NCBI GenBank assembly: GCA_018830725.1
Contig: JAHJRV010000094.1
Span: 30,628 to 94,627 of the forward strand
Direction of reading: 5' to 3'
DNA length: 64,000 nucleotides
Origin: Actinomycetota bacterium
GTDB lineage: Bacteria > Actinomycetota > Humimicrobiia > JAHJRV01
Part shown: positions 923 through 13,162 of the stretch, in pieces
Layout: each line of letters begins with the position of its first letter
How positions within the stretch are numbered: position 1 is the stretch's first letter
Made by a program: the position numbers and the translations under genes
The notes under the pieces: model-generated
The model's input: only the letters and a program-made list of their open reading frames with translations
The model's database searches: none
What the model was told of the DNA's origin: nothing

Positions 923-2617
923 ATGCAAGAAGAAAAAAAGTTATTTACTAGAAAAGCTACAGGATTGGTACGAGAAATAGGAGTTGGAACTGCAGTTATT
1001 ATAGCTATTGCTAATGTTGTTGGACTTGGATGGCAGAAAAGAGTATTTCAAGCAACAGGTTGGACTCCAGTCGGTGAGAGTAAATTTCTTTTTGGAATTC
1101 ATCCAGTTGTAATGGCTTTTGCTCTTGCTGGATTAATTATTTTGGTATCATTGTACTGTTTTTCAATGTTATCAGCTGCTATGCCAAGATCAGGTGGTGG
1201 ATACATATTCATTTCCAGAATTCTAAATCCTGCTTTAGGATTTGTAGCCACATGGCTTCAGTTCTTTGCTGTTGCTGTTTCTTATGGATTAATAGCTGTT
1301 GCAGTAATGGAAGCAGTCTGGATCTTTGGTGGACTCGCTGGTATTTCACTTCCAGGTTGGCTTACTAGCCCTGTTGGTTTGTTTCTATCAGGTGTAGTAA
1401 TACTTATAATCTTTAGTGGTATTGCATTCTATGGAATAAAGATGACAGGAAAATTGCTTCAATGGTTATTCTGGATCCCAGCAGCAGTACTGGTAATTGT
1501 GTATATACTATTTATTGTAGCAAATCCTCAAACTATGGAGGCAGGTGTTCAAAATCTATTTGGTTCAAGTGCAGCTGAGTATACACAAGCAGCTATTGAC
1601 CAGGGAATGGCAGATGTAGCAGCAGGAAATACTTATTGGAAAGCGGTTGGAAGTGCAATGTTAGCGGCTTATTGGGCTTATATTGGTTATGCCGCTGCCT
1701 CATTTATAGCTGGTGAAGTAAAGGAAGCACACAAAGCTCTACCAAGAGCTATGTTCACATCTGGATTAGTAATCATTGGTATATACATGACCATTTCAAC
1801 TCTTATGGCAAGAGCTGCAATGATGGCTGGAAAGGTTGGAGATTTCTCATTGATGTCAGCTATTGGATTTCTTAATTTTGGAGGAGGAGATTTTGCAGCT
1901 GCTGGATTAGAAAAAATTGGCGGATGGATGCCAGTTGTTGCTGCAATTTCAGCTTCTGGATTTGGACTTCCAAGAGCATTCATGTTCCTATTGGTATTAT
2001 TTGCTGCTTTATGGGTTGCTAATGATATTCCACCATTTATCTTGACTTCTTCAAGAATGATATTTGCTATGGCTTTTGATAGAGTTCTACCTGATAAATT
2101 AGCAAAAGTTAATGAGAAATGGCATTCACCAGTAAACGCTATAATCTTTGTTTCACTTGTTTCTTTGTTTGGTTGTGCTGCTGAGGCTGACTTTTTTGGA
2201 GAAAAGGGGTTGTATTTAGGCAAATTCATTCACAGTATTATAAATCCAGGTGGAGCTATTGCAGCAACTGACTTATGGGATACAATATTCTTCTTAGTTG
2301 TGTGCATTGCAGCATTCATGTTCCCCATAAGAAAGCCCGATATATTTGAGAGGTCACCATTCAGAGCAAGTAAAACAGTTACACAAATAATTGCAGGACT
2401 GGCAATAATAGGAAATCTTATTGCGTTCTGGATATTCGCTACTGATCCTCATGGATGGAACCTTTTTGGAATTAAGAATCTGGCTTCTGCAATGCCATTC
2501 TTATTCTCTATTTTCCTAATTCTTTTGGGCTTGGGAATTTATCTTTACTACAGTAATAAAGCCAAGGCAACAGGTGTTGATCTAACCACAATATTTACAG
2601 AAATTCCTCCAGACTAA
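923..2617 (+). CDS. APC-superfamily amino acid/polyamine permease (polytopic membrane transporter)
   Basis: 564 aa with 12 or more hydrophobic helices and an APC-like N-terminal region. A strong RBS (aggagg) sits 8 nt upstream of the ATG. Confidence 0.7.
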   Translation: MQEEKKLFTRKATGLVREIGVGTAVIIAIANVVGLGWQKRVFQATGWTPVGESKFLFGIHPVVMAFALAGLIILVSLYCFSMLSAAMPRSGGGYIFISRILNPALGFVATWLQFFAVAVSYGLIAVAVMEAVWIFGGLAGISLPGWLTSPVGLFLSGVVILIIFSGIAFYGIKMTGKLLQWLFWIPAAVLVIVYILFIVANPQTMEAGVQNLFGSSAAEYTQAAIDQGMADVAAGNTYWKAVGSAMLAAYWAYIGYAAASFIAGEVKEAHKALPRAMFTSGLVIIGIYMTISTLMARAAMMAGKVGDFSLMSAIGFLNFGGGDFAAAGLEKIGGWMPVVAAISASGFGLPRAFMFLLVLFAALWVANDIPPFILTSSRMIFAMAFDRVLPDKLAKVNEKWHSPVNAIIFVSLVSLFGCAAEADFFGEKGLYLGKFIHSIINPGGAIAATDLWDTIFFLVVCIAAFMFPIRKPDIFERSPFRASKTVTQIIAGLAIIGNLIAFWIFATDPHGWNLFGIKNLASAMPFLFSIFLILLGLGIYLYYSNKAKATGVDLTTIFTEIPPD

Positions 2618-2662
2618 AATTTCTGGATTTTGTTAATGTAGTATTGCCATAGATTGATATAT

Positions 2663-2697
2663 CAGCTCCTGCTCTAAGTAGGAGCTGATTATCATTT
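2663..2697 (+). terminator. intrinsic terminator after the transporter gene
   Basis: cagctcct-gctctaagt-aggagctg forms an 8-bp GC-rich stem. It is followed by attatcattt, about 45 nt after the stop. Confidence 0.45.
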
Positions 2698-2709
2698 AAC
2701 TCCATAGCC

Positions 2710-2802
2710 AAGAAGTCCCTTTGCGATAACTGGGGGATGAAAGGCATTATTAATAGAAGATAGATACTCACAGGAAGCCCTCTGCGTTAGCTGAGGGTAG
2801 TT
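2710..2802 (+). other. pair of paralogous about 31-nt hairpin elements (GGAAGyCCCTyTGCGnTArCTGrGGG) spaced about 62 nt apart
   Basis: Unit A is at 2710-2740 and unit B at 2772-2802. Each is a CCCT(C)/(G)AGGG stem with a TGCGNTARCTG loop. The units are GC-rich in an AT-rich intergenic region. Confidence 0.3.
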
Positions 2803-2908
2803 TACATATTATAATAAATAGATAAATAGGAATAAAATAACATATTTAATATATAAAGTAAGGTCGTGTTAAACAGTTTTCTCTCGTTATACTCAGGACA
2901 AGATCTAA

Positions 2909-3439
2909 ATGAAGCGAAGGAACTACAAAAAAAATGGAAAATATATGAAAAGAGTAATTGATTTGAGAGACTTTATAGATAAAATAGAAAATCAATTGAT
3001 TAAAGGAAGGGGGAAGTGGATTGCTGAGTTCAATGAATCATTTATAAACTATCCACTTGATAATTTTGTTTTTCCATTAGTTGTTAGAGGGCAAACAAGA
3101 AGTAAAGGATTTTTACTCTCGAGATTATTTGCTTACTTGGCCATGCCAAACTATTTGGTGTCATGTTTTGTATATCCTTCAGAAATAAATTCATATATTA
3201 AAAAAGAGAAACTAGAAATATTACTTAGAGAAATATCCAAAATGATGAAGAAGAACAATGTAAAATGGTCCTGGCTTATCATCCCAAAAGAGGGTGAATT
3301 TAATCAAAGAATAATAAAGTGGGTTGAAAAAAATGACCTTTCTAATATTGGTATTGCTTTAGTAGACTTAAATACTAAAAATATTTTAACTAATAATTCA
3401 GTTATAGGAAGAAAAATTAAAACTATTTTAAAATTTTAG
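2909..3439 (+). CDS. hypothetical protein (basic N-terminus; start may be the internal MKRVIDL)
   Basis: 176-aa ORF with no recognisable motif. Confidence 0.35.
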   Translation: MKRRNYKKNGKYMKRVIDLRDFIDKIENQLIKGRGKWIAEFNESFINYPLDNFVFPLVVRGQTRSKGFLLSRLFAYLAMPNYLVSCFVYPSEINSYIKKEKLEILLREISKMMKKNNVKWSWLIIPKEGEFNQRIIKWVEKNDLSNIGIALVDLNTKNILTNNSVIGRKIKTILKF

Positions 3440-3527
3440 CGATTATTTATAATATATCCTTTTAAACATATTGTACAAAAAAAATTAAAAACTTCTTATA
3501 AAGAAATAAAACTATTTCGAAATTCTA

Positions 3528-3959
3528 ATGAAGAAAATATCAAAAATAAATTTTGGAGATTTAGGAAAATCATTCTCTATCTTTTTTATTCTTATAGTGA
3601 CATTACGAATTATTACAAATTTCTTATTCACAAAGATTATAATTGTAGAGTGGTGGATTTTAACAATAGAGCTAATTTTAGCTGCTATTGTGTCCTATTT
3701 GTATTATAGACTTAAATATCATCCCACCTTTAGTTATGACAAAGAAAGTTTTATTTTAGAAATTGGTAAGGAAAAAATATCCTCAAAATGGAAAGATTTT
3801 AAATTTATCTCTTTGTATTATAGTGGTTTAGGAAAAACTTCTTTAAGATTATATATAAATGATATCTATAAAGATGATTATATTGAAATCTCAGTCTCTG
3901 ATTTAAGACTTAATCCAAAAGATTTTAGAAGTGAAGTTTCAAAATTAATTTCAAACTAA
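3528..3959 (+). CDS. hypothetical membrane protein (2 TM helices plus a possible bacterial PH-like domain)
   Basis: 143 aa. Two hydrophobic helices are followed by a soluble tail, an architecture like DUF304/bPH_2 proteins. Confidence 0.35.
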   Translation: MKKISKINFGDLGKSFSIFFILIVTLRIITNFLFTKIIIVEWWILTIELILAAIVSYLYYRLKYHPTFSYDKESFILEIGKEKISSKWKDFKFISLYYSGLGKTSLRLYINDIYKDDYIEISVSDLRLNPKDFRSEVSKLISN

Positions 3960-3960
3960 A

Positions 3961-4908
3961 TTAACCTTCTACTCTCTGAAGTCTAAGTATTTTACCACCT
4001 TCAATTTCTACTAGATAACCTTTAAATATACCCTCTCCATATTCACTCCCTGGATTGAAACATACAGTTTTACCAATTTTTATATATCCTGGGCTTTCAT
4101 GAATGTGTCCATGAAGTCCTACTAATGGTTGGTATTTTTTAATAATTTTTCTAACAGTATGACTTCCTACTGGTATCTCGCGAGGTTTACCACCTACAAT
4201 TATTATATTTAAATCTTTATCTACCATTGGTGCATAATCAAGATAAGAATCATATGGTGGGCAGTGGATGCAAAATACAGCAGTCTTTATATTCTTAACT
4301 TTAGCTACTACTTTCTCCAATTTCTCCTCCATCTCTTCCTCTGAGCATTCTCTTGGAGAATCAAATGGGGTGGGATTTGTCCAGCCAAAACATAGAACCT
4401 CATGTTCCCCATCTAAATCAACAACTTCTTCCTCACCAAATGTTATTCTTGGATCTTTCTTGATTACTTCATCAATAGCAAACTTATCATCATTTCCAGG
4501 ACTTATAATAACTTTGCACTTATCAGGTACTCTATCTGATACTAATGTAAGCCAGTGTTCAACAATATCACATTCTAATTTCTCAAATAGATTTTCCCTG
4601 TATTCTTCATCGTTCCCTATCCTGATACTTTCTTCACTTGTAGTTCTATATGGAAGATAAGAAGTCATTCTTACTTTTTTTTCGTATTCAGGTAATTCCT
4701 CTTCTGATAAAACATACTCTCTTCCTAAAAGATGTGAGGTATATTTCCCATGATCCCTTTTCATTATTGGTACCATTATTTTACCAGTCATATCTCCACT
4801 AAGTATTAAAGCATCCAGGTCATAAATCTTTGCTGTATTCAGAAACTTTCTCCAAACAGTTTCTGAACCATGTAAGTCTGTTGCAAACATAAATTTAGTT
4901 CTTGCCAT
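3961..4908 (-). CDS. calcineurin-like metallophosphoesterase
   Basis: Motifs DLHG (DxH), SGDMTGK (GD), PGNDD (GNH[DE]-like), IHCPPY and GLHGHIHE (GHxH) in canonical order. Confidence 0.75.
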   Translation of the reverse strand: MARTKFMFATDLHGSETVWRKFLNTAKIYDLDALILSGDMTGKIMVPIMKRDHGKYTSHLLGREYVLSEEELPEYEKKVRMTSYLPYRTTSEESIRIGNDEEYRENLFEKLECDIVEHWLTLVSDRVPDKCKVIISPGNDDKFAIDEVIKKDPRITFGEEEVVDLDGEHEVLCFGWTNPTPFDSPRECSEEEMEEKLEKVVAKVKNIKTAVFCIHCPPYDSYLDYAPMVDKDLNIIIVGGKPREIPVGSHTVRKIIKKYQPLVGLHGHIHESPGYIKIGKTVCFNPGSEYGEGIFKGYLVEIEGGKILRLQRVEG

Positions 4909-4910
4909 TT

Positions 4911-5681
4911 TTAACCCCTCCCTACTTCCTCAACTTCTTTATACCATTTTTTCTTTGTACCAACCTTAGACCTTATTTTCCATTTCAAGCTTTTAGGTTC
5001 ATCTTCTATTCTTTCAAGTATTTTATCAATTCTATCTGTAACTATTTTGCTATTTTCATCCGTCAAAGATTCGAATTCACCCAGAAAATTTTTAACTTTT
5101 TTAAGGTTAGTTGTCACTGTATAATAATATCCCCAATCTTTTGCCAGAAGCTTAGATATATAGTTCATGTTTATTGTTTCTTCTTCCTTATCCCCAACAT
5201 CGTGCTCAAGTAACATTATACTAGTATCTTTGATATCCTTTGGATTTATCTCTACTATCTGCATCTTTTCTAATAATATATCAGTTAAAGTGATAGTAGG
5301 GTCATCTAATTCCAATCTGTTTCTAAAATCAACCTTGTGACACATATCTAACTCATCAAAAAAGATATCTACTTGCCATTTTTTCTCATCACTCCAGTAG
5401 ATTTGTCTTTTTTTACCATACAATGCAAAAAATATCGGGCTTATTGGTTCATAACCTAAATCCTTAAAAAATTTTTTCATTCCTTCTCTAAATTTTCCAT
5501 ATGTCATTAAGTCTATATCTGTAAGTGGTCTCTTCATTTCATCATATAGATACCTATATTTTGGACTATGATTTTTTACTGCAATTGAACCCAATAATCT
5601 AAAAATTATCCCTTTTTCTTTGCCTTTTTCAATTATTTTAAATGCTTCTTCAACAAAAGCTTTATCTCTTTCAGGATCCAT
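4911..5681 (-). CDS. nucleotidyltransferase-fold (pol-beta-like) protein, translationally coupled to the metallophosphoesterase
   Basis: LLGSIAV...TDIDLM gives a GS...DxD pattern, and VDIFFDE supplies a third acidic residue. The GS-D spacing is longer than canonical, so the call is tentative. The stop lies 3 nt before the downstream gene start. Confidence 0.4.
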   Translation of the reverse strand: MDPERDKAFVEEAFKIIEKGKEKGIIFRLLGSIAVKNHSPKYRYLYDEMKRPLTDIDLMTYGKFREGMKKFFKDLGYEPISPIFFALYGKKRQIYWSDEKKWQVDIFFDELDMCHKVDFRNRLELDDPTITLTDILLEKMQIVEINPKDIKDTSIMLLEHDVGDKEEETINMNYISKLLAKDWGYYYTVTTNLKKVKNFLGEFESLTDENSKIVTDRIDKILERIEDEPKSLKWKIRSKVGTKKKWYKEVEEVGRG

Positions 5682-5878
5682 AACTCCTCCTATTTTAATT
5701 AATTATCGATAAAATAAATTATATATAATTTATTTTATTTTATTAATTAATTTATTAATTATATCAGTAAAATTTAAAGAATCAATATATTGTATTATCT
5801 TTTGTCACAATTACAAAATGTTAAAAATAATAAATTTAAATGAGATTGCACAGCCTGTTCCGAGCAAGCTCCTGGTTG

Positions 5879-6520
5879 TCATTCAGAAGAGCTTTCCTTT
5901 AATATCTTTTCTAAAGCTCTTACTTGCTTATCTGATAGAATTTTAGGTTCACCTACCTGAAGAGCTTTATGATAAATTTTTGCTGATTCTTCTACTAATA
6001 TCGCAATTAAAACTGCATTCGATAATGAAGAGCCTATTGTTAAAACTCCATGACTTTCTAAAAGAACTGCTGATCTATTAGAAAGTTTTTTAAGTGATTT
6101 TTTTGCCAATTCTTCTGAACCAGGAAGTGCAAAATCAACAACTGGAATATCTCCTCCTACTGAAAAGAATGTCTCAATATGTATAAGAGGAATACTCTTT
6201 TTAAGTACAGCAAAGCATGCAGCATATGGAGAATGCGTATGAGCAATTCCAAAGATATCCTCCCTATTTTTATAAATTTTTAAATGAATGGGAGTCTCAT
6301 ATGATGGTTTATTTTTACCCTCAATCTTATTTCCATTTATATCTAAAACTACAATATCCTGTAGATTTAAAAATTCCCTGAGTACTCCATGAGGAGTAAC
6401 AAAAATATATCCTGTTTCTCTATCCCTTAAACTAAAATTACCAGTTGTTGGGACAACCAAACCTAATTTCTCAGCTTTTTGAGCCCAGAAAATAACCTCA
6501 TTTTTATAATCTTCATACAT
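5879..6520 (-). CDS. class II aldolase/adducin-family protein (FucA/AraD/MtnB-like)
   Basis: Motifs GNFSLR, PSYETPIH and HTHSPY. Confidence 0.7.
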   Translation of the reverse strand: MYEDYKNEVIFWAQKAEKLGLVVPTTGNFSLRDRETGYIFVTPHGVLREFLNLQDIVVLDINGNKIEGKNKPSYETPIHLKIYKNREDIFGIAHTHSPYAACFAVLKKSIPLIHIETFFSVGGDIPVVDFALPGSEELAKKSLKKLSNRSAVLLESHGVLTIGSSLSNAVLIAILVEESAKIYHKALQVGEPKILSDKQVRALEKILKESSSE

Positions 6521-6637: not shown

Positions 6638-6725
6638 TGGTGTCGGAGGGGGGACTTGAACCCCCACGAGCTACTCACTCACAAGGTCCTCAACCTTGAG
6701 CGTCTACCAATTCCGCCACTCCGAC
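6638..6725 (-). tRNA. tRNA-Leu (anticodon GAG), type II with long variable arm, CCA encoded
   Basis: Cloverleaf read by hand. Acceptor GTCGGAG/CTCCGAC, anticodon arm CAAGG-TTGAGGA-CCTTG, T-arm GGGGG-TTCAAGT-CCCCC, 3' ACCA. Confidence 0.85.
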
Positions 6726-6760: not shown

Positions 6761-8554
6761 TTATTTTTCAATCCAGACTGTGTAAAAATATGGACCTGTA
6801 AAAGGATTGGATTGATAACCTTTCACCCATGGTCTAATTAAAATATTTCTTGAGCCATAATATAATGGAATTATTGGGAACTCACCTGGATACTTATCTT
6901 CATCACTTTTATCACCAAAAGCAATTTTTGAAGCTTTTTTATATAATTCGACCTGTTTGTCCAAATCACTAAATATCACAGCATTTGTTACCAATTCATC
7001 AAATTCATCATTTTTCCACCCAGTATAATTGTTAGGTGATCTACTATGCAATTCTGTAAATAACCAATTACTTACATGAGGATAATCAGGTATCTTTTCC
7101 ATTAGATACATATCAATAACTATAGTACTTCCATATATGTCATGGATTGTATCAAAATATGTTTCAGAATCCATTTCAATTAAATCAACTTCTAAATTTA
7201 AATTTTTAGATAACATACTCTTTATAGATTTAACTAATATCTCATTCTCCTCTGACTCCTCATAAACAAATTTTAAAGGTCTAATCCCTTTATTATTTGA
7301 GCTTTCATCAGCTGGTTGAAGAGCTTCAACAAGAATTTTTTTTGCTTTCTCAACATCAAAATCAATTCCTATTGTTTCATCATGTCCTAAAACTTGAGGT
7401 GGGATAAATTGATTTGCTACTGTCTGATTTTTCCAAAATATATTATTTTTCAATTCATTCTTATTTATAGCTAATGCTATTGCTTTTCTAATTAGTGGAT
7501 TATTACCTGGTTCATGCTTAGTATTAAAACCTAAGTAATAAGTTGAAAGTCTTGGTTCAGTTAATAACTGACTTTTAATTAAAGGGGTAGAAATAATTTC
7601 CTCCAACTTATCGGATGGAATTCCAGATTGCCATCCCCAAGTTCCATCTATCTTCCCCTCCTCATAAACAGATAATTCTGTATATTTATCCTTGCTTAAA
7701 AATATATTGATAGTGTTAAGTTTTGGTGAACCTTCAAAATAATTAGGATTTGCTTTCAAAACAATCTTTTCATCAGGTTCCCAATTTTTTAAAATAAAAG
7801 GACCATTTGTTACTAAATTCTTAATATTTGTCCAATTTTCCTTATATTTTTCAACTACAGATTCAGGAACTGGCTTTGTTATCCAGGTAGAGGTTATATA
7901 AGTAAAATAATTAACAGGACCTCTCAATTTAACTTCTAATACATTATCACCTTTAGCCTCGATGCCAAGAGCAGCTGAATCTAATTCACCTTTACGAAAT
8001 TCTTTAGCACCTTCTATATCAAAAAATAGGTAAGCATAGGGAGAGTTAATTTCTGTGGAAAGCGTTCTTTTCCATGAATAAACAAAATCATGTGCTGTAA
8101 TATGATCACCATTAGTCCAATAAGCATCCTCTCTTATTGTAAATGTAATAATAGTTCCATCATCTGAAATTTCCCAATTTTCAGCAATACAGGGTGAAAC
8201 AGACAAATCTGGCTCAAGCTTTGTAAGACCAACAAAAATTTGATTAATTATATTAATAGAAGCTCTGCTATTAGCTAAATTTGGATCAATTGTTATTGGT
8301 TCTTCATTAAAACATAAATTTAGAATTTGCTCAGACTCAAGCTTTAATTCTTCAGATATTTTTGTTGATTCCAAAGGAATTTCTGTAATTTTTTTTTCTT
8401 CCAAATAAATTTTTTTTCTTATTCTCTCTATTTGGTTGCATCCAATAGAAGAAAAACTATAAGTGATTAAAAGTATAGGCATAAATATTATAAAAAATCT
8501 TCTTAAATTATTCATAACTCTTTTGAATATTTTTATTTTAAAGCAATCAATCAT
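6761..8554 (-). CDS. ABC transporter substrate-binding lipoprotein, family 5 (peptide/nickel, OppA/DppA-like)
   Basis: 597 aa with a signal peptide and lipobox (SSIGC). It has the typical SBP_bac_5 length and composition and overlaps the upstream SBP gene by 4 nt. Confidence 0.7.
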   Translation of the reverse strand: MIDCFKIKIFKRVMNNLRRFFIIFMPILLITYSFSSIGCNQIERIRKKIYLEEKKITEIPLESTKISEELKLESEQILNLCFNEEPITIDPNLANSRASINIINQIFVGLTKLEPDLSVSPCIAENWEISDDGTIITFTIREDAYWTNGDHITAHDFVYSWKRTLSTEINSPYAYLFFDIEGAKEFRKGELDSAALGIEAKGDNVLEVKLRGPVNYFTYITSTWITKPVPESVVEKYKENWTNIKNLVTNGPFILKNWEPDEKIVLKANPNYFEGSPKLNTINIFLSKDKYTELSVYEEGKIDGTWGWQSGIPSDKLEEIISTPLIKSQLLTEPRLSTYYLGFNTKHEPGNNPLIRKAIALAINKNELKNNIFWKNQTVANQFIPPQVLGHDETIGIDFDVEKAKKILVEALQPADESSNNKGIRPLKFVYEESEENEILVKSIKSMLSKNLNLEVDLIEMDSETYFDTIHDIYGSTIVIDMYLMEKIPDYPHVSNWLFTELHSRSPNNYTGWKNDEFDELVTNAVIFSDLDKQVELYKKASKIAFGDKSDEDKYPGEFPIIPLYYGSRNILIRPWVKGYQSNPFTGPYFYTVWIEK

Positions 8555-10422
8555 TCCTCTATGATTTTTCTCTTTGTATCCAAATCAATATTCCATAGAT
8601 AAAAATCTTGTTGGCCTACAGTCTTAATGGTACGATTTACCCAAGGTTTAGTTAAAGTTACTATCGTGTCAAAGTAAATTGGTACAATTGCAGTCTCAAC
8701 ATTATTTAGCTGATATTCTGCCTGTTTATAAAGTTCTTTTCTTTTCTTAGGATCTTGTTCTATACTAGCTTCCCTGGTTAATTTGTCAAATTCTAACTCT
8801 TTTACCTCAGTGCAAATTGGATCTGAACATCCTCTTCTTAACCTATTAGTTCCAGCTTCATTGTTAAATATTTCATGTACCCAGTTATTTTGATCAGGAT
8901 AATCAGCAAACCAAAATAGTCTCCAAATATGTGGCATATCTTCTAAGGGAGTATCCTTCTGTAGAGTTTTAAGATATTCCATCAATTCCTGAGTTTCTAT
9001 TTTAACATCAACATTTAATACTTCCTTCCACATAACTACTATCGCTTCAGCTATTTTTTTATGATGCTCACTTTCATTGTGCATTAGGATTACCTCAGGG
9101 AAACCTTCACCATCTAGATATCCAGCTTCAGCTAAATATGCTTTTGCTTTTTCTGGATCATATGTTATTCCCACATCTGGATCGCCAGCAACATTGCCAA
9201 AAATACCTGTAGGAGCAAAAGAGTTTGCTGGTATATGTTTACCGTCTAATACTGTATCTATAAGAGTTTGTCTGTCAATTGCTGCTGAAAATGCCTTTCT
9301 GATTAAATGATTATCAAATGGAGGTTTGTTATTAGTAAATCCATAGTAATAAGTATCAGGTACTGGGATAATAGTTAATTCCTCCTTTAGAACTTTATCT
9401 GATTTTATTTTATTTATTTCTGAAATAGGAACATTGCAGATGTCCAACTGATTATTCTTATACATGTCAAATGCTGAATATTCGTCCTCAACCATATATG
9501 CGATTATCTTTTCAATCTGTACTTTATCTGCATCAGGATAATATGGATTTTTTACTAATGTATAATGGTTACCATGAACCCATTCAGTCATTACATAAGG
9601 ACCATTTGAATATATATAACATGGCTCAATCCATTTCTCTTTGCGATATTCAATAACTTCTTGAGGTAATGGTTTACAAATTGACATACTTACAATTCCT
9701 GGGAAGTAAGGAGCTTTATGCTCCAAAGTGAATTTCACAGTATAATCATCAACTGCTTCAACACCAATGGTTTCTAAAAGTTCAGGTATTATTTCCTCTT
9801 CAGTAGTATTAACTGCTTCTCCATTTTTTAATGCATACAAAACATAAGCATAATCTGAACCAGTTACTGGGTTTAGAGTTCTTCTTACTCCATATACAAC
9901 ATCATTAGCTGTAACTGGAATTGGATTTCCATATTCATCCAAAACTTGCTCTACCTGATTTGTTGAACAATTATATCTAACCCATGTAATATCATCCCTT
10001 ATACTAAAGGTCCATGTAAAACCATCATTAGATAGCTCCCATTCAGTAGCTAATTCAGTAATTACATTACTATCCTCATCCAAACCTGTTAGACCCAGAA
10101 AAATACTCTCGACTAATTGTAATGAAGTGGTATCTGTTACAAATGCAGGATCTGCAGTTTCAGGCTCTTTACCCACATTAAGCATGAGAGTTACTGGTCC
10201 CTCTTCCAGTACAGGAGTTGTTTCTTCTACTTCCATTTCTTCTTCACTTGCTGTCATTTCCTCAATTTTAGTTTCTTCAACTAATGATTGTTTTAAGTAA
10301 GGACATCCTATAATTGAGATAGAGAGAAATATTATTAGAAAAATTATTGATGCGGTAAATATATTTTTTTTTAATAAATTCATAAATTTATTACTTTTTT
10401 TTACAATTAGAATATACTTCAC
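8551..10422 (-). CDS. ABC transporter substrate-binding lipoprotein, family 5 (OppA-like)
   Basis: 623 aa with lipobox IIGC and an acidic linker. It is a paralog of the neighbouring SBP. Confidence 0.7.
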   Translation of the reverse strand: MKYILIVKKSNKFMNLLKKNIFTASIIFLIIFLSISIIGCPYLKQSLVEETKIEEMTASEEEMEVEETTPVLEEGPVTLMLNVGKEPETADPAFVTDTTSLQLVESIFLGLTGLDEDSNVITELATEWELSNDGFTWTFSIRDDITWVRYNCSTNQVEQVLDEYGNPIPVTANDVVYGVRRTLNPVTGSDYAYVLYALKNGEAVNTTEEEIIPELLETIGVEAVDDYTVKFTLEHKAPYFPGIVSMSICKPLPQEVIEYRKEKWIEPCYIYSNGPYVMTEWVHGNHYTLVKNPYYPDADKVQIEKIIAYMVEDEYSAFDMYKNNQLDICNVPISEINKIKSDKVLKEELTIIPVPDTYYYGFTNNKPPFDNHLIRKAFSAAIDRQTLIDTVLDGKHIPANSFAPTGIFGNVAGDPDVGITYDPEKAKAYLAEAGYLDGEGFPEVILMHNESEHHKKIAEAIVVMWKEVLNVDVKIETQELMEYLKTLQKDTPLEDMPHIWRLFWFADYPDQNNWVHEIFNNEAGTNRLRRGCSDPICTEVKELEFDKLTREASIEQDPKKRKELYKQAEYQLNNVETAIVPIYFDTIVTLTKPWVNRTIKTVGQQDFYLWNIDLDTKRKIIEE

Positions 10423-11416: not shown

Positions 11417-13162
11417 TTACATAAAGATTCTTAAAATTGCTGGAAAGGTTGAGAAGATTCCTTCAAAAACAAACCATAAAAATACTATTATAATAATTTC
11501 TGCTACAATTTGATTTTTAAAATCTAAAAATTTATAAAATAGAAAAGTAAAAATGGATGCAATTATGTATCCAATGATTGTATAAGAAGGTAAAAATTCT
11601 ACATTAAGGAGATTTTTAATACCAGGAAAAAAGAATCTACTAAATGAAGCTATCATAGATACAATTAAAATAATTAACAGAATATGTAAGCTACTTTTAG
11701 CCATTTTAGAAACTAAGTAATTTACAATTATTAAAGATAAAATTAAAGTTAAAATAACTGCTCCAATGTTTAGAATGGAAATCATGGAAGATAGAATAAG
11801 AGAAAAAAGATATCCTCCCATTCCAAAAAAATACTCTTTTTTACTTCCAATTCCCAATTTATTAAATAAATTAGTTCTAACTACATCTTTATTATCTTTA
11901 TAAACAACTTTACTGGTTTGATCGGGATTAAATCCTATCCAAAAGAATTGAGCGTAATCATCTTCGTAAGGAAAAACTTTTGGCAGATATGTGTCTTCAC
12001 CCCTGTCATTTACTCTCATCTCATCTTTAACAATAGTACCATCTTTATTTATTAGTTTATAGTAAGTTTCAAGTCTATCTCTTCTGTTATCCATCCAGAC
12101 TAAGTGTATTTTATCCTTGTTGGAAGAGATGTATGGATTGTAAGACCATTTCAATGTTCTTGTTATAAATTCACCTCTTGTAATATCTTTTCCGTCCAAA
12201 TCAAATATATCCATAATTATGTCTTTGTGCCCACCTATTTCAAGACTTAAATCTTCTTCAGTTATAAGACCTGATCTAAAAATATAAATTCTATTTTCAT
12301 TAACAAAATGAACTGCTTGAATATTAGTTGTGTACAATATTGTTCTGCCAACTTTTTTTTCAAAAATCTTTTCAAAGTCTTGAGTAAATACTCCTAAATA
12401 TATAAATGGTCTCTTAGGGTCTTCTCTAATGTCTCGCCAAATTATATATAATCTATCATTAAAAAATTGCAACTTTGGTTGCTTTGCTTTTCCTTGAGGT
12501 ATCTCTGATAGTTTGTAAGTATCTGAAATATTTCCATCTGAACTAACTTTTATACCAGATAGACCTGTTACACCCTCCTTTATATCTGAAAATACTAAAT
12601 AGATATTATTTTGAGAGTCAAAACATACATTAATATCATCAATGTATTTTCCCTCATAAATTGTTTCTGGGCTTGAAATGTTTTTTCCATCCTTATTAAT
12701 TGTAATGTTATTTAAATTATTTCTCCTATTTTCATTATTAATTGATGAGTAGAAAATGTTAATTTTTCCAGCATCATCAACAAGAATTTTATAATCTATA
12801 TAAGAGCTTTTTTTAGAATCTAGAATTGTTTCAGGTATAAGAGTTTTAAGATTCTCATTGAATTTAGTAAATTTTAGACAAAGATTTTCATTAACTCTAT
12901 CTATCCATACAATCTCGTAATTTTTTAATTTATCTTTATATACAGAATATGAAGTTGATTTAAAACTATCAATTATGGTTTTTGAAACAGAGAATCCCTC
13001 ATCCACCTCAACTAAAAATTTTCCCGATAATTCAGGATTACCAAAGATTTTCTCATAAACTGGTGGTAGCAAAGAGCAGATTATAAGTAGAAATAAGAAT
13101 AAAACTACTTTTAAGAAAATGGGAAAATACTTTATTAATATAGATTTATTATGTGTGTTCAT
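11417..13162 (-). CDS. hypothetical membrane-anchored protein (N-terminal TM, large Asn/Tyr/Asp-rich beta-rich domain, C-terminal multi-TM region)
   Basis: 581-aa ORF with no recognisable catalytic motif. Confidence 0.35.
   Translation of the reverse strand: MNTHNKSILIKYFPIFLKVVLFLFLLIICSLLPPVYEKIFGNPELSGKFLVEVDEGFSVSKTIIDSFKSTSYSVYKDKLKNYEIVWIDRVNENLCLKFTKFNENLKTLIPETILDSKKSSYIDYKILVDDAGKINIFYSSINNENRRNNLNNITINKDGKNISSPETIYEGKYIDDINVCFDSQNNIYLVFSDIKEGVTGLSGIKVSSDGNISDTYKLSEIPQGKAKQPKLQFFNDRLYIIWRDIREDPKRPFIYLGVFTQDFEKIFEKKVGRTILYTTNIQAVHFVNENRIYIFRSGLITEEDLSLEIGGHKDIIMDIFDLDGKDITRGEFITRTLKWSYNPYISSNKDKIHLVWMDNRRDRLETYYKLINKDGTIVKDEMRVNDRGEDTYLPKVFPYEDDYAQFFWIGFNPDQTSKVVYKDNKDVVRTNLFNKLGIGSKKEYFFGMGGYLFSLILSSMISILNIGAVILTLILSLIIVNYLVSKMAKSSLHILLIILIVSMIASFSRFFFPGIKNLLNVEFLPSYTIIGYIIASIFTFLFYKFLDFKNQIVAEIIIIVFLWFVFEGIFSTFPAILRIFM

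Follow-up and report, generated by a model that had tools for sequence, protein, structure and literature searches.

At positions 923-5681 of a 64,000-nt stretch of contig JAHJRV010000094.1 from an Actinomycetota bacterium of the Humimicrobiia (hereafter, the window), we analysed a group of genes organised as two convergent units. The plus-strand unit codes for a permease of the APC superfamily and two small proteins, s176 and s143; the minus-strand unit comprises gene A, for a nucleotidyltransferase (NTase) of the Pol-beta type, and gene B, for a calcineurin-like metallophosphoesterase (MPE). Very probably, these genes constitute a functional module linked to the permease and not a defence system. 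Its core is formed by the permease, the MPE and the NTase, to which this lineage adds the two small proteins, one of them membrane-anchored. The combination, conserved from bacteria to archaea, appears to be undescribed, and literature searches found nothing on it or on the gene A family.

Conservation and linkage of the gene set

Scanning one genome per species, we found 489 loci with a relative of gene A, the best 80 of which were kept for locus counts (individual loci are designated by L numbers). The majority of these 80 belong to Bathyarchaeia, and the others include Asgard archaea, Thermococci, Nitrososphaerales, Chloroflexota, Alphaproteobacteria, Gammaproteobacteria, Desulfobacterales, Actinomycetota and Planctomycetota; the closest, in a metagenome-assembled genome of Candidatus Humimicrobiia, shows 95% identity to gene A. 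An MPE of the gene B family was located by tblastn within 6 kb of A in 66 of the 80 loci, and the pairing first noticed in a reading of this DNA from the sequence only is therefore conserved well beyond this genome. An APC permease of about 540 aa was recovered in 63 loci by unsupervised clustering of open reading frames (ORFs) and in 60 by tblastn, and both the MPE and the permease were present in at least 55.

Gene order was variable, and every order and orientation was encountered. A is followed directly by B in 18 loci (within 150 nt, and overlapping it in L008) and B by A in eight, other loci contain convergent or divergent pairs, and Alphaproteobacteria have the order B, permease, A; in 25 of the 66 loci with an MPE, A and B are separated by more than 1.2 kb, often with the permease between them. 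Because the partners are constant while their order varies, we consider their linkage functional and not accidental. Additionally, identity to the window proteins was correlated across loci (A/B, r = 0.84; A/permease, 0.85; B/permease, 0.92), indicating that the three genes are inherited together.

A search started from the MPE examined three loci: all five genes are present on one contig from Stahlbacteria and on another that is Anaerolineae-like, and a complete Anaerolineae genome contains the MPE and two A-like genes, with no permease within 8 kb. In the cultured haloarchaeon Halobellus limi, a 398-kb plasmid contains the MPE and A genes in tandem, facing a convergent APC permease gene; the RefSeq annotation of this region reads, in order, IclR, iron alcohol dehydrogenase, aldehyde dehydrogenase, metallophosphoesterase, hypothetical protein (which is A) and APC family permease. 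At least four genomes have two complete modules, each with its own permease. Paired modules were seen in Bathyarchaeia at L048 and L058, which share a contig, and at L025/L063, L078/L079 and L047/L075, and in L016, L047 and L058 two or three tandem permease genes accompany a single A and B.

The MPE proteins of Actinomycetota, Chloroflexota and Stahlbacteria share 73-79% identity, their permeases 68-76% and their A proteins 60-67%. Such levels of identity (60-79%) across these three groups suggest that the module spreads horizontally as a metabolic cassette.

The nucleotidyltransferase, gene A

Gene A (4911-5681, minus strand) and gene B (3961-4908, minus strand) code for proteins of 256 and 315 aa, as the sequence-only reading had placed them. 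Neither a signal peptide nor a transmembrane (TM) segment was found in either product, so both act in the cytoplasm. The AlphaFold model of the gene A product (pLDDT 94, pTM 0.91) displays an alpha/beta NTase core and the catalytic motifs are kept, confirming the Pol-beta-like fold proposed earlier. We evaluated conservation in an alignment of 41 sequences and in another of 75 sequences from the genomic loci. In the latter, the catalytic residues G31-S32, D55xD57 (D55-I-D57) and D105 are at least 97% conserved; in both alignments, this level is reached by G31, D55, D57, D105, R51, R92, H115, R122, K139, Q141, K148, D149, D152, W183, N192, K230, W234, R237, W246 and Y247. Within the helical domain, K139 and D149xxD152 correspond to AbiEii-like motif III/IV residues.

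No Pfam or NCBIfam model matched gene A at threshold. The top match was NTP_transf_5 (PF14907; E 0.053), with 13.5 bits for a gathering threshold of 31.2, which places gene A outside the formal membership of this family. Sub-threshold matches to PF14907 occur in 23 of 41 family members (best E 1e-5), and for two relatives, P0116 and the 259-aa gene of L086, a PF14907 annotation had been precomputed. On these sequence matches, gene A is a distant outlier of the PF14907 family or clan, situated in the AbiEii/NTP_transf_5 corner of the Pol-beta superfamily and outside every defined family. An HD_3 match in its C-terminal half (E 0.02) was seen in only 2 of 41 members and was treated as spurious. 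Sequence searches of PDB chains with gene A, singly and as a family profile, gave nothing meaningful, and the nearest neighbours in structure include the AbiEii-like MenT toxins and the antibiotic NTases ANT(2'') and LnuA.

The family is large, with 911 homologues in a word-indexed search and 2,821 clusters at 50% identity (E <= 1e-3), of which 901 have E <= 1e-30. With few exceptions, its members consist of a single domain and are about 255 aa long. N-terminal fusions are rare: P0330 has a winged helix of the MarR/IclR type, and in P0384 and P0389 an unannotated alpha/beta domain of about 110 aa, followed by a proline-rich linker, precedes the NTase. These fusions could hint at regulation or could be products of gene calling.

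The metallophosphoesterase, gene B

The product of gene B is an MPE of the COG2129, or 'Icc-related', type. It matched PF00149 (Metallophos) with 28.0 bits (cut-off 21.5), and its structure model (pLDDT 92) has the beta-sandwich MPE fold. The motifs D11xH13, G38D39, G138N139, H215, G267H268 and H270 are invariant. All metal ligands are thus kept, as had been claimed; motif III is not the canonical GNH[DE], however, and reads GNDD, with the metal-binding Asn retained and the next His replaced by an invariant Asp. An insert of about 80 residues (residues ~44-125) relative to the minimal MPE core is conserved, and mean column identity in the subfamily reaches 75% (34 sequences, several phyla). 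As judged from their intact active sites, A and B both look like active enzymes. The combination of a capping domain and an adjacent Rad50/SbcC ATPase gene, expected of an Mre11/SbcD nuclease, was not found for gene B.

By structure, the relatives of gene B include nucleotide and glycerophosphodiester phosphodiesterases (MPPED2, 20.6; Rv0805, 16.3; GpdQ, 15.5). MPPED2, its closest characterised structural relative, and Rv0805 are cyclic-nucleotide phosphodiesterases, and Rel/SAS and CD-NTases share the fold of gene A in structure comparisons. An NTase with a phosphodiesterase follows the classic logic of a synthase and a degrader, and A might accordingly make a signalling nucleotide that B degrades, with the permease or the small membrane proteins as regulated effectors, by analogy with c-di-AMP, which controls potassium and osmolyte transporters. 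We judge this unlikely. The several genomes with two or more complete modules would suffer cross-talk through a diffusible signal, and the module contains no recognisable nucleotide-sensor domain.

The pair might also serve in the repair or editing of RNA 3' ends, with B healing 2',3'-cyclic-phosphate or 3'-phosphate ends and A adding nucleotides to the 3'-OH. Pnkp-type RNA repair does use a calcineurin-like phosphoesterase, A resembles the tRNA-modifying MenT enzymes and terminal transferases, and its C-terminal segment has invariant basic and aromatic residues (K230, W234, R237, W246 and Y247). Nevertheless, this role would leave unexplained the near-constant permease partner and the amine-catabolic neighbours described below, no ligase, kinase or Hen1 genes occur nearby, and genes for a housekeeping task on RNA would not be expected to duplicate along with permeases. 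For these reasons we give it hardly any credence.

Defence-related readings

From the pairing of an NTase with a phosphoesterase, the sequence-only reading had proposed a defence, toxin-antitoxin or cGAS-like module, and this was not borne out. As a toxin-antitoxin or anti-phage system, A would be a MenT/AbiEii-like toxin, blocking for instance tRNA 3' ends, and B an enzymatic antitoxin removing the modification. The AbiEii-like K139 and D149xxD152, the tight two-gene A-B operon of the window and the single relative of A with an N-terminal winged helix-turn-helix fusion are in keeping with this scheme. However, PADLOC returned no match for A, only a partial match to a generic MPE (PDC-S10) for B and only a weak 'AA transporter' match for the permease. 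The gene A product of the window did not match PF08843 (AbiEii, DUF1814), and 1 of 41 relatives did so below threshold (E 0.0025). Genes for an AbiEi winged helix-turn-helix protein or a MenA-type antitoxin were absent from the window, and none recurred in the 80 loci. A and B are, moreover, often split by the permease or found on opposite strands, and their sequence conservation is unusually high for a conflict system.

Homologues of gene A were likewise nearly absent from mobile elements, with none in 50,697 phage genomes, none in 2.9 million IMG/VR viral contigs and a single one among 72,556 plasmids, that of the H. limi replicon. Nor does the locus have the hallmarks of an island. The sequence-only reading had described a tRNA-proximal accessory patch, and the neighbours that it named, a tRNA-Leu(GAG) gene (6638-6725), a class II aldolase gene (5879-6520) and two small ORFs, are indeed present. 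Yet no integrase and no direct repeat derived from tRNA-Leu were found at the locus, and the GC content of the region (0.24-0.35) is the same as that of its surroundings, which led us to reject a genomic island at tRNA-Leu; the description holds, weakly, in that the cassette may move horizontally. A cyclic oligonucleotide-based anti-phage signalling system (CBASS) was also discarded, because gene A did not combine a cGAS/DncV-like fold with a match to the family model, and the neighbouring genes contain no domain of a CBASS-type effector (SAVED, STING, patatin or TM effector). Together, these results make a toxin-antitoxin or anti-phage role very improbable.

The permease and its C-terminal tail

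The permease gene (923-2617, plus strand) codes for 564 aa with about 12 TM helices, of which a TM scan detected 11 as hydrophobic segments. The protein matched AA_permease_2 (PF13520; E 6e-28, 98.4 bits, cut-off 27) and is distantly similar to LAT-type transporters; its close homologues are named 'APA family basic amino acid/polyamine antiporter' in JGI. Just 3' of the gene lies a terminator-like hairpin with a 13-bp stem (2661-2689, plus strand), which is a pattern match only.

The permeases share across phyla a C-terminal tail motif of fixed length, G-[IV]-D-x4-[FY]-x-E-[IL]-P-P-[DE]-COOH, encoded at 2573-2614 in the window. Among 54 module-linked permeases (cluster 1, L004-L083), counting from the C-terminus, G is found at -14 in 51, one of [ILV] at -13 in 53, D or E at -12 in 44, F or Y at -7 in all 54, E at -5 in 45, one of [ILV] at -4 in all 54 and P at -3 in 52. 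A basic cluster lies between the last TM helix and the motif, so that the tail should be cytoplasmic by the positive-inside rule. To our knowledge, a fixed C-terminal tail of this kind is unusual for APC transporters, and it could be a docking site for a soluble partner.

Three close permease homologues of 645-692 aa (P0418, P0428 and P0429) contain an extra insertion of 80-130 aa, highly charged and probably helical, that maps to the loop at residues ~315-335 of the window permease (FLNFGGGDFAAAGLEKIGGW). The long variants (636-694 aa) were considered as possible fusions with s143 or s176 and rejected as such, since inspection by eye revealed the charged loop insertion instead.

The small proteins s176 and s143

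The two small ORFs had been taken as a boundary of the A-B pair, a view that their co-occurrence with the module, their fusion and their coupling in relatives overturn, showing them to be members of it. The first, s176 (2945-3439, plus strand), codes for a small soluble protein without a Pfam match. At its longest the ORF begins at 2909, but relatives initiate at the second ATG (2945), which gives a protein of 164 aa, as called in L001. The second, s143 (3528-3959, plus strand), codes for a small membrane protein with two N-terminal TM helices and a soluble domain of about 80 aa. Homologues of s176 adjoin the module in 12 loci, from Humimicrobiia, Chloroflexota, Bathyarchaeia and Stahlbacteria, and those of s143 in 11 loci; overall, the small genes occur with the module in 11-12 of the 80 loci, plus the Stahlbacteria locus L085 and L086. 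The Bathyarchaeia carrying them are the subset whose MPE is 51-63% identical to gene B.

In L060 (7760-8707, minus strand), an s143-like domain (two TM helices and soluble part) and an s176-like domain are fused in a protein of 315 aa; the order of the domains is opposite to the gene order in the window. In L086 the operon has the order permease, s159, s161, A with overlapping reading frames, such that a small membrane protein is translationally coupled to A.

The close relatives L004 and L005 have an overlapping TAATG junction between s176 and s143, and alignment with them reveals in the window, and in the identical L001, an insertion of about 89 nt (3440-3527, plus strand) that separates the genes and has therefore removed their translational coupling. 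A junction stretch of about 27 nt is duplicated as a direct repeat, with copies at 3412-3438 and 3501-3527, the second of which is diverged and ends the insertion.

A different two-TM protein of about 226 aa without a Pfam family (cluster c12) adjoins the MPE in six archaeal loci (L020, L024, L027, L040, L044 and L053), lying between the MPE and the permease wherever a permease is present. It was rejected as an s143 homologue (hhalign probability 1.6%).

Organisation of the A-B operon

The A-B junction (4909-4922, minus strand) reads GGGAGGGG-TTAA-AA-ATG, within the longer coding-strand stretch GTAGGGAGGGGTTAAAAATGGCA. The gap between the genes, given earlier as 3 nt, is actually of 2 nt, from the TAA stop of A (4913-4911) to the ATG of B (4908-4906). 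The Shine-Dalgarno sequence GGGAGGGG (4922-4915) is strong and lies inside the 3' end of gene A, which, with the 2-nt gap, makes the translational coupling of B to A plausible, as had been suggested. Gene A has its own AGGAGG site.

The best-scoring promoter-like site (5758-5785, minus strand) consists of TTGATT, a 16-nt spacer and a TG-extended TATAAT, and is probably the promoter of the operon. This element, at 5785-5758, is invariant in four related genomes, and the sequence upstream of it diverges. A perfect AT-only palindrome of 30 nt, ATAAAATAAATTATATATAATTTATTTTAT, is present at 5709-5738, flanked by the promoter-like -10 box on one side and by the gene A ribosome-binding site on the other. 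It may act as an operator or form a weak hairpin. L005 and L006 have only an imperfect version and L004 has lost it, so it is not essential.

On opposite strands, s143 (plus) and gene B (minus) end with stop codons 1 nt from each other (3957-3963). A terminator has no room between them, and therefore the transcripts must overlap. This convergent abutment recurs in Humimicrobiia, Chloroflexota and Bathyarchaeia, with distances of -4 to +1 nt in L004-L006, L017 and L062, and of 23-26 nt in L008 and L033.

Neighbouring genes

The variable neighbours of the module are repeatedly genes for the catabolism of amines and other nitrogen compounds, and they differ between loci. Ten loci of Alphaproteobacteria and Actinomycetota hold a gene similar to type III glutamine synthetase (GS), above the cut-off of TIGR03105 "type III glutamate-ammonia ligase", a group that we take to include gamma-glutamylmethylamide synthetases; these loci also contain genes for TetR, an AllG-like protein and an alpha/beta hydrolase. 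An MttB-family methyltransferase and a corrinoid protein are encoded in at least four archaeal loci, and a B12-binding protein and RACo in Stahlbacteria. Other neighbours code for class-III aminotransferase, CoA-acylating aldehyde dehydrogenase, aldehyde:ferredoxin oxidoreductase (AOR), adenine-deaminase-like amidohydrolase, M20 peptidase and F420-dependent LLM oxidoreductases. The compound taken up by the permease is most likely a small nitrogenous one of the amine type, such as methylated or primary amines, amino alcohols or polyamines, and we infer that paralogous modules serve different substrates. Because the core is constant and the catabolic neighbours vary, the role of the module should be tied to the permease and not to the chemistry of one substrate.

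In the window itself, the region downstream of tRNA-Leu (6761-10422 and 11417-13162) codes for two tandem SBP_bac_5 proteins (597 and 623 aa) of a peptide-type ABC system and for a 581-aa multi-TM protein without a Pfam family, and a dodecin gene is found at 90-323.

Proposed role of the module

The specific mechanism that we propose, tentatively, is a switch exerted by A and B on the permease system, with a logic similar to that of GlnD/GlnK/AmtB. We favour a regulatory cycle on the transporter system for two reasons: the enzyme pair stays constant against a changing set of catabolic genes, and to transfer a group and then hydrolyse it off is to write and erase, not to run a productive pathway. 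A, as the writer, would take a nucleotidyl group from a nucleoside triphosphate (NTP) and transfer it to a hydroxyl of the permease system, either on the permease itself, for example near its conserved cytoplasmic C-terminal tail, or on a partner protein. B, as the eraser, would hydrolyse the resulting phosphodiester, and the two enzymes together would provide a fast on/off switch for uptake. Rapid shut-off of the uptake of a weak base would avoid futile cycling. In this scheme, what becomes nucleotidylylated, which way transport runs and what is transported are all inferred.

There is precedent for the components of such a cycle. GlnD, which joins a Pol-beta-type uridylyltransferase and a phosphohydrolase domain, acts via GlnK on the ammonium channel AmtB, a switch by which a weak base that can cross the membrane is kept from cycling futilely. 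Proteins, RNA or nucleotides are the substrates of most Pol-beta NTases characterised so far, and among the members of the calcineurin superfamily are protein phosphatases whose docking sites are short linear motifs. In L086, the translational coupling of A to a small membrane protein and the permease links it to membrane proteins. A bolder form of the proposal, to which we attach a rather low probability, is that the module represents a new post-translational switch for APC-type amine/amino-acid permeases, widespread in bacteria and archaea, with a MenT/ANT-like NTase as the writer and the enzymes docking on the ...[FY]xE[IL]PP[DE] tail; it would be similarly speculative to see in it, by analogy, an independent reinvention of the GlnD/GlnK/AmtB principle.

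Several observations weigh against a switch on the permease. We sought a family-specific invariant Ser, Thr or Tyr in the permease that could serve as a modification site and found none, and the permease residues conserved at 97% or more are those of generic APC motifs only. The aromatic residue at -7 of the tail is Phe in 41 of the 54 sequences. Within 6 kb of A, one or both partners are missing from about 10-20% of the loci; nine lack both, five of which (L011, L037, L043, L056 and L077) have less than 500 bp on one side of A. In Alphaproteobacteria, the three genes are part of a TetR-controlled operon, between the GS-like and alpha/beta hydrolase genes, which also looks like a plain catabolic pathway. 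Lastly, the small-molecule O-nucleotidyltransferases ANT(2'') and LnuA are among the best structural matches of A.

The last two points lead to the main rival explanation, which we also hold to be a possibility and no stronger: that A and B process the substrate, acting on the imported amine or amino alcohol or on its phospho- or nucleotidyl-conjugate. A might, for example, O-nucleotidylylate the molecule and B cleave the phosphodiester, thereby trapping or activating the compound for the catabolic enzymes. ANT and Lnu enzymes O-nucleotidylylate amino-alcohol antibiotics, and A is structurally similar to them; the phosphodiesterase relatives of B would fit as well, as would the presence of a separate permease in each paralogous module and the same-strand operons with GS-like, alpha/beta hydrolase, aldehyde dehydrogenase and iron alcohol dehydrogenase genes under TetR or IclR. 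On the other hand, transfer followed by hydrolysis would be futile, or very costly where a kinase would do, and we know of no catabolic pathway that uses a Pol-beta NTase on a nutrient. A and B are also highly conserved, likely surface residues included, though the downstream enzymes differ, which is unexpected if their substrates differ.

Significance and comparison with known systems

The gene A family numbers some 2,800 clusters, with no Pfam family and no solved relative at the sequence level, yet it travels with a specific permease and a specific phosphoesterase in both prokaryotic domains. The family is especially frequent in Bathyarchaeia, Asgard archaea and Chloroflexota, which dominate anoxic sediments and live on detrital nitrogen compounds. 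Once known, its import substrate and the action of its enzymes would allow the annotation of thousands of 'hypothetical' genes, and might reveal a new mode of transporter regulation or a new route of amine assimilation. The occurrence of the module in the cultured H. limi makes the question experimentally approachable.

Among described NTases, MenT/AbiEii (DUF1814) and NTP_transf_5 proteins are like A in their two-domain Pol-beta fold, with hG[GS], DxD, a third Asp, and Lys plus DxxD. A differs from them in falling below the Pfam thresholds, in lacking a cognate antitoxin gene and in having an MPE and a permease as partners; its family, unlike MenT/AbiEii, is absent from phages and nearly so from plasmids, is single-copy-like and has a strongly conserved metabolic context. 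ANT(2'')-Ia and LnuA are 15-18% identical to A over the aligned residues, without any match at the sequence level, and their chains (175 and 158 residues) are some 80-95 residues shorter. The context of A, in contrast to theirs, is not one of resistance, and its family is dominated by uncultured anaerobic archaea and bacteria. The structures closest to gene B are those of aq_1956 (2yvt), TT1561 (1uf3) and MPPED2, with 17-19% identity; aq_1956 and TT1561, the closest two, are both without a known function. Gene B is set apart from all three by its conserved insert of about 80 residues and its invariant GNDD motif III.

As a system, the module most resembles GlnD-GlnK-AmtB, as a functional analogy only: a Pol-beta NTase would be the writer, a metal-dependent phosphohydrolase the eraser, and the transporter would carry a membrane-permeant nitrogen base, and the module is found with genes of nitrogen assimilation, such as that of the type III GS-like enzyme. 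It differs in having no PII or Amt genes, in that the eraser is a separate calcineurin-like MPE and not an HD domain, and in that the transporter is of the APC type.

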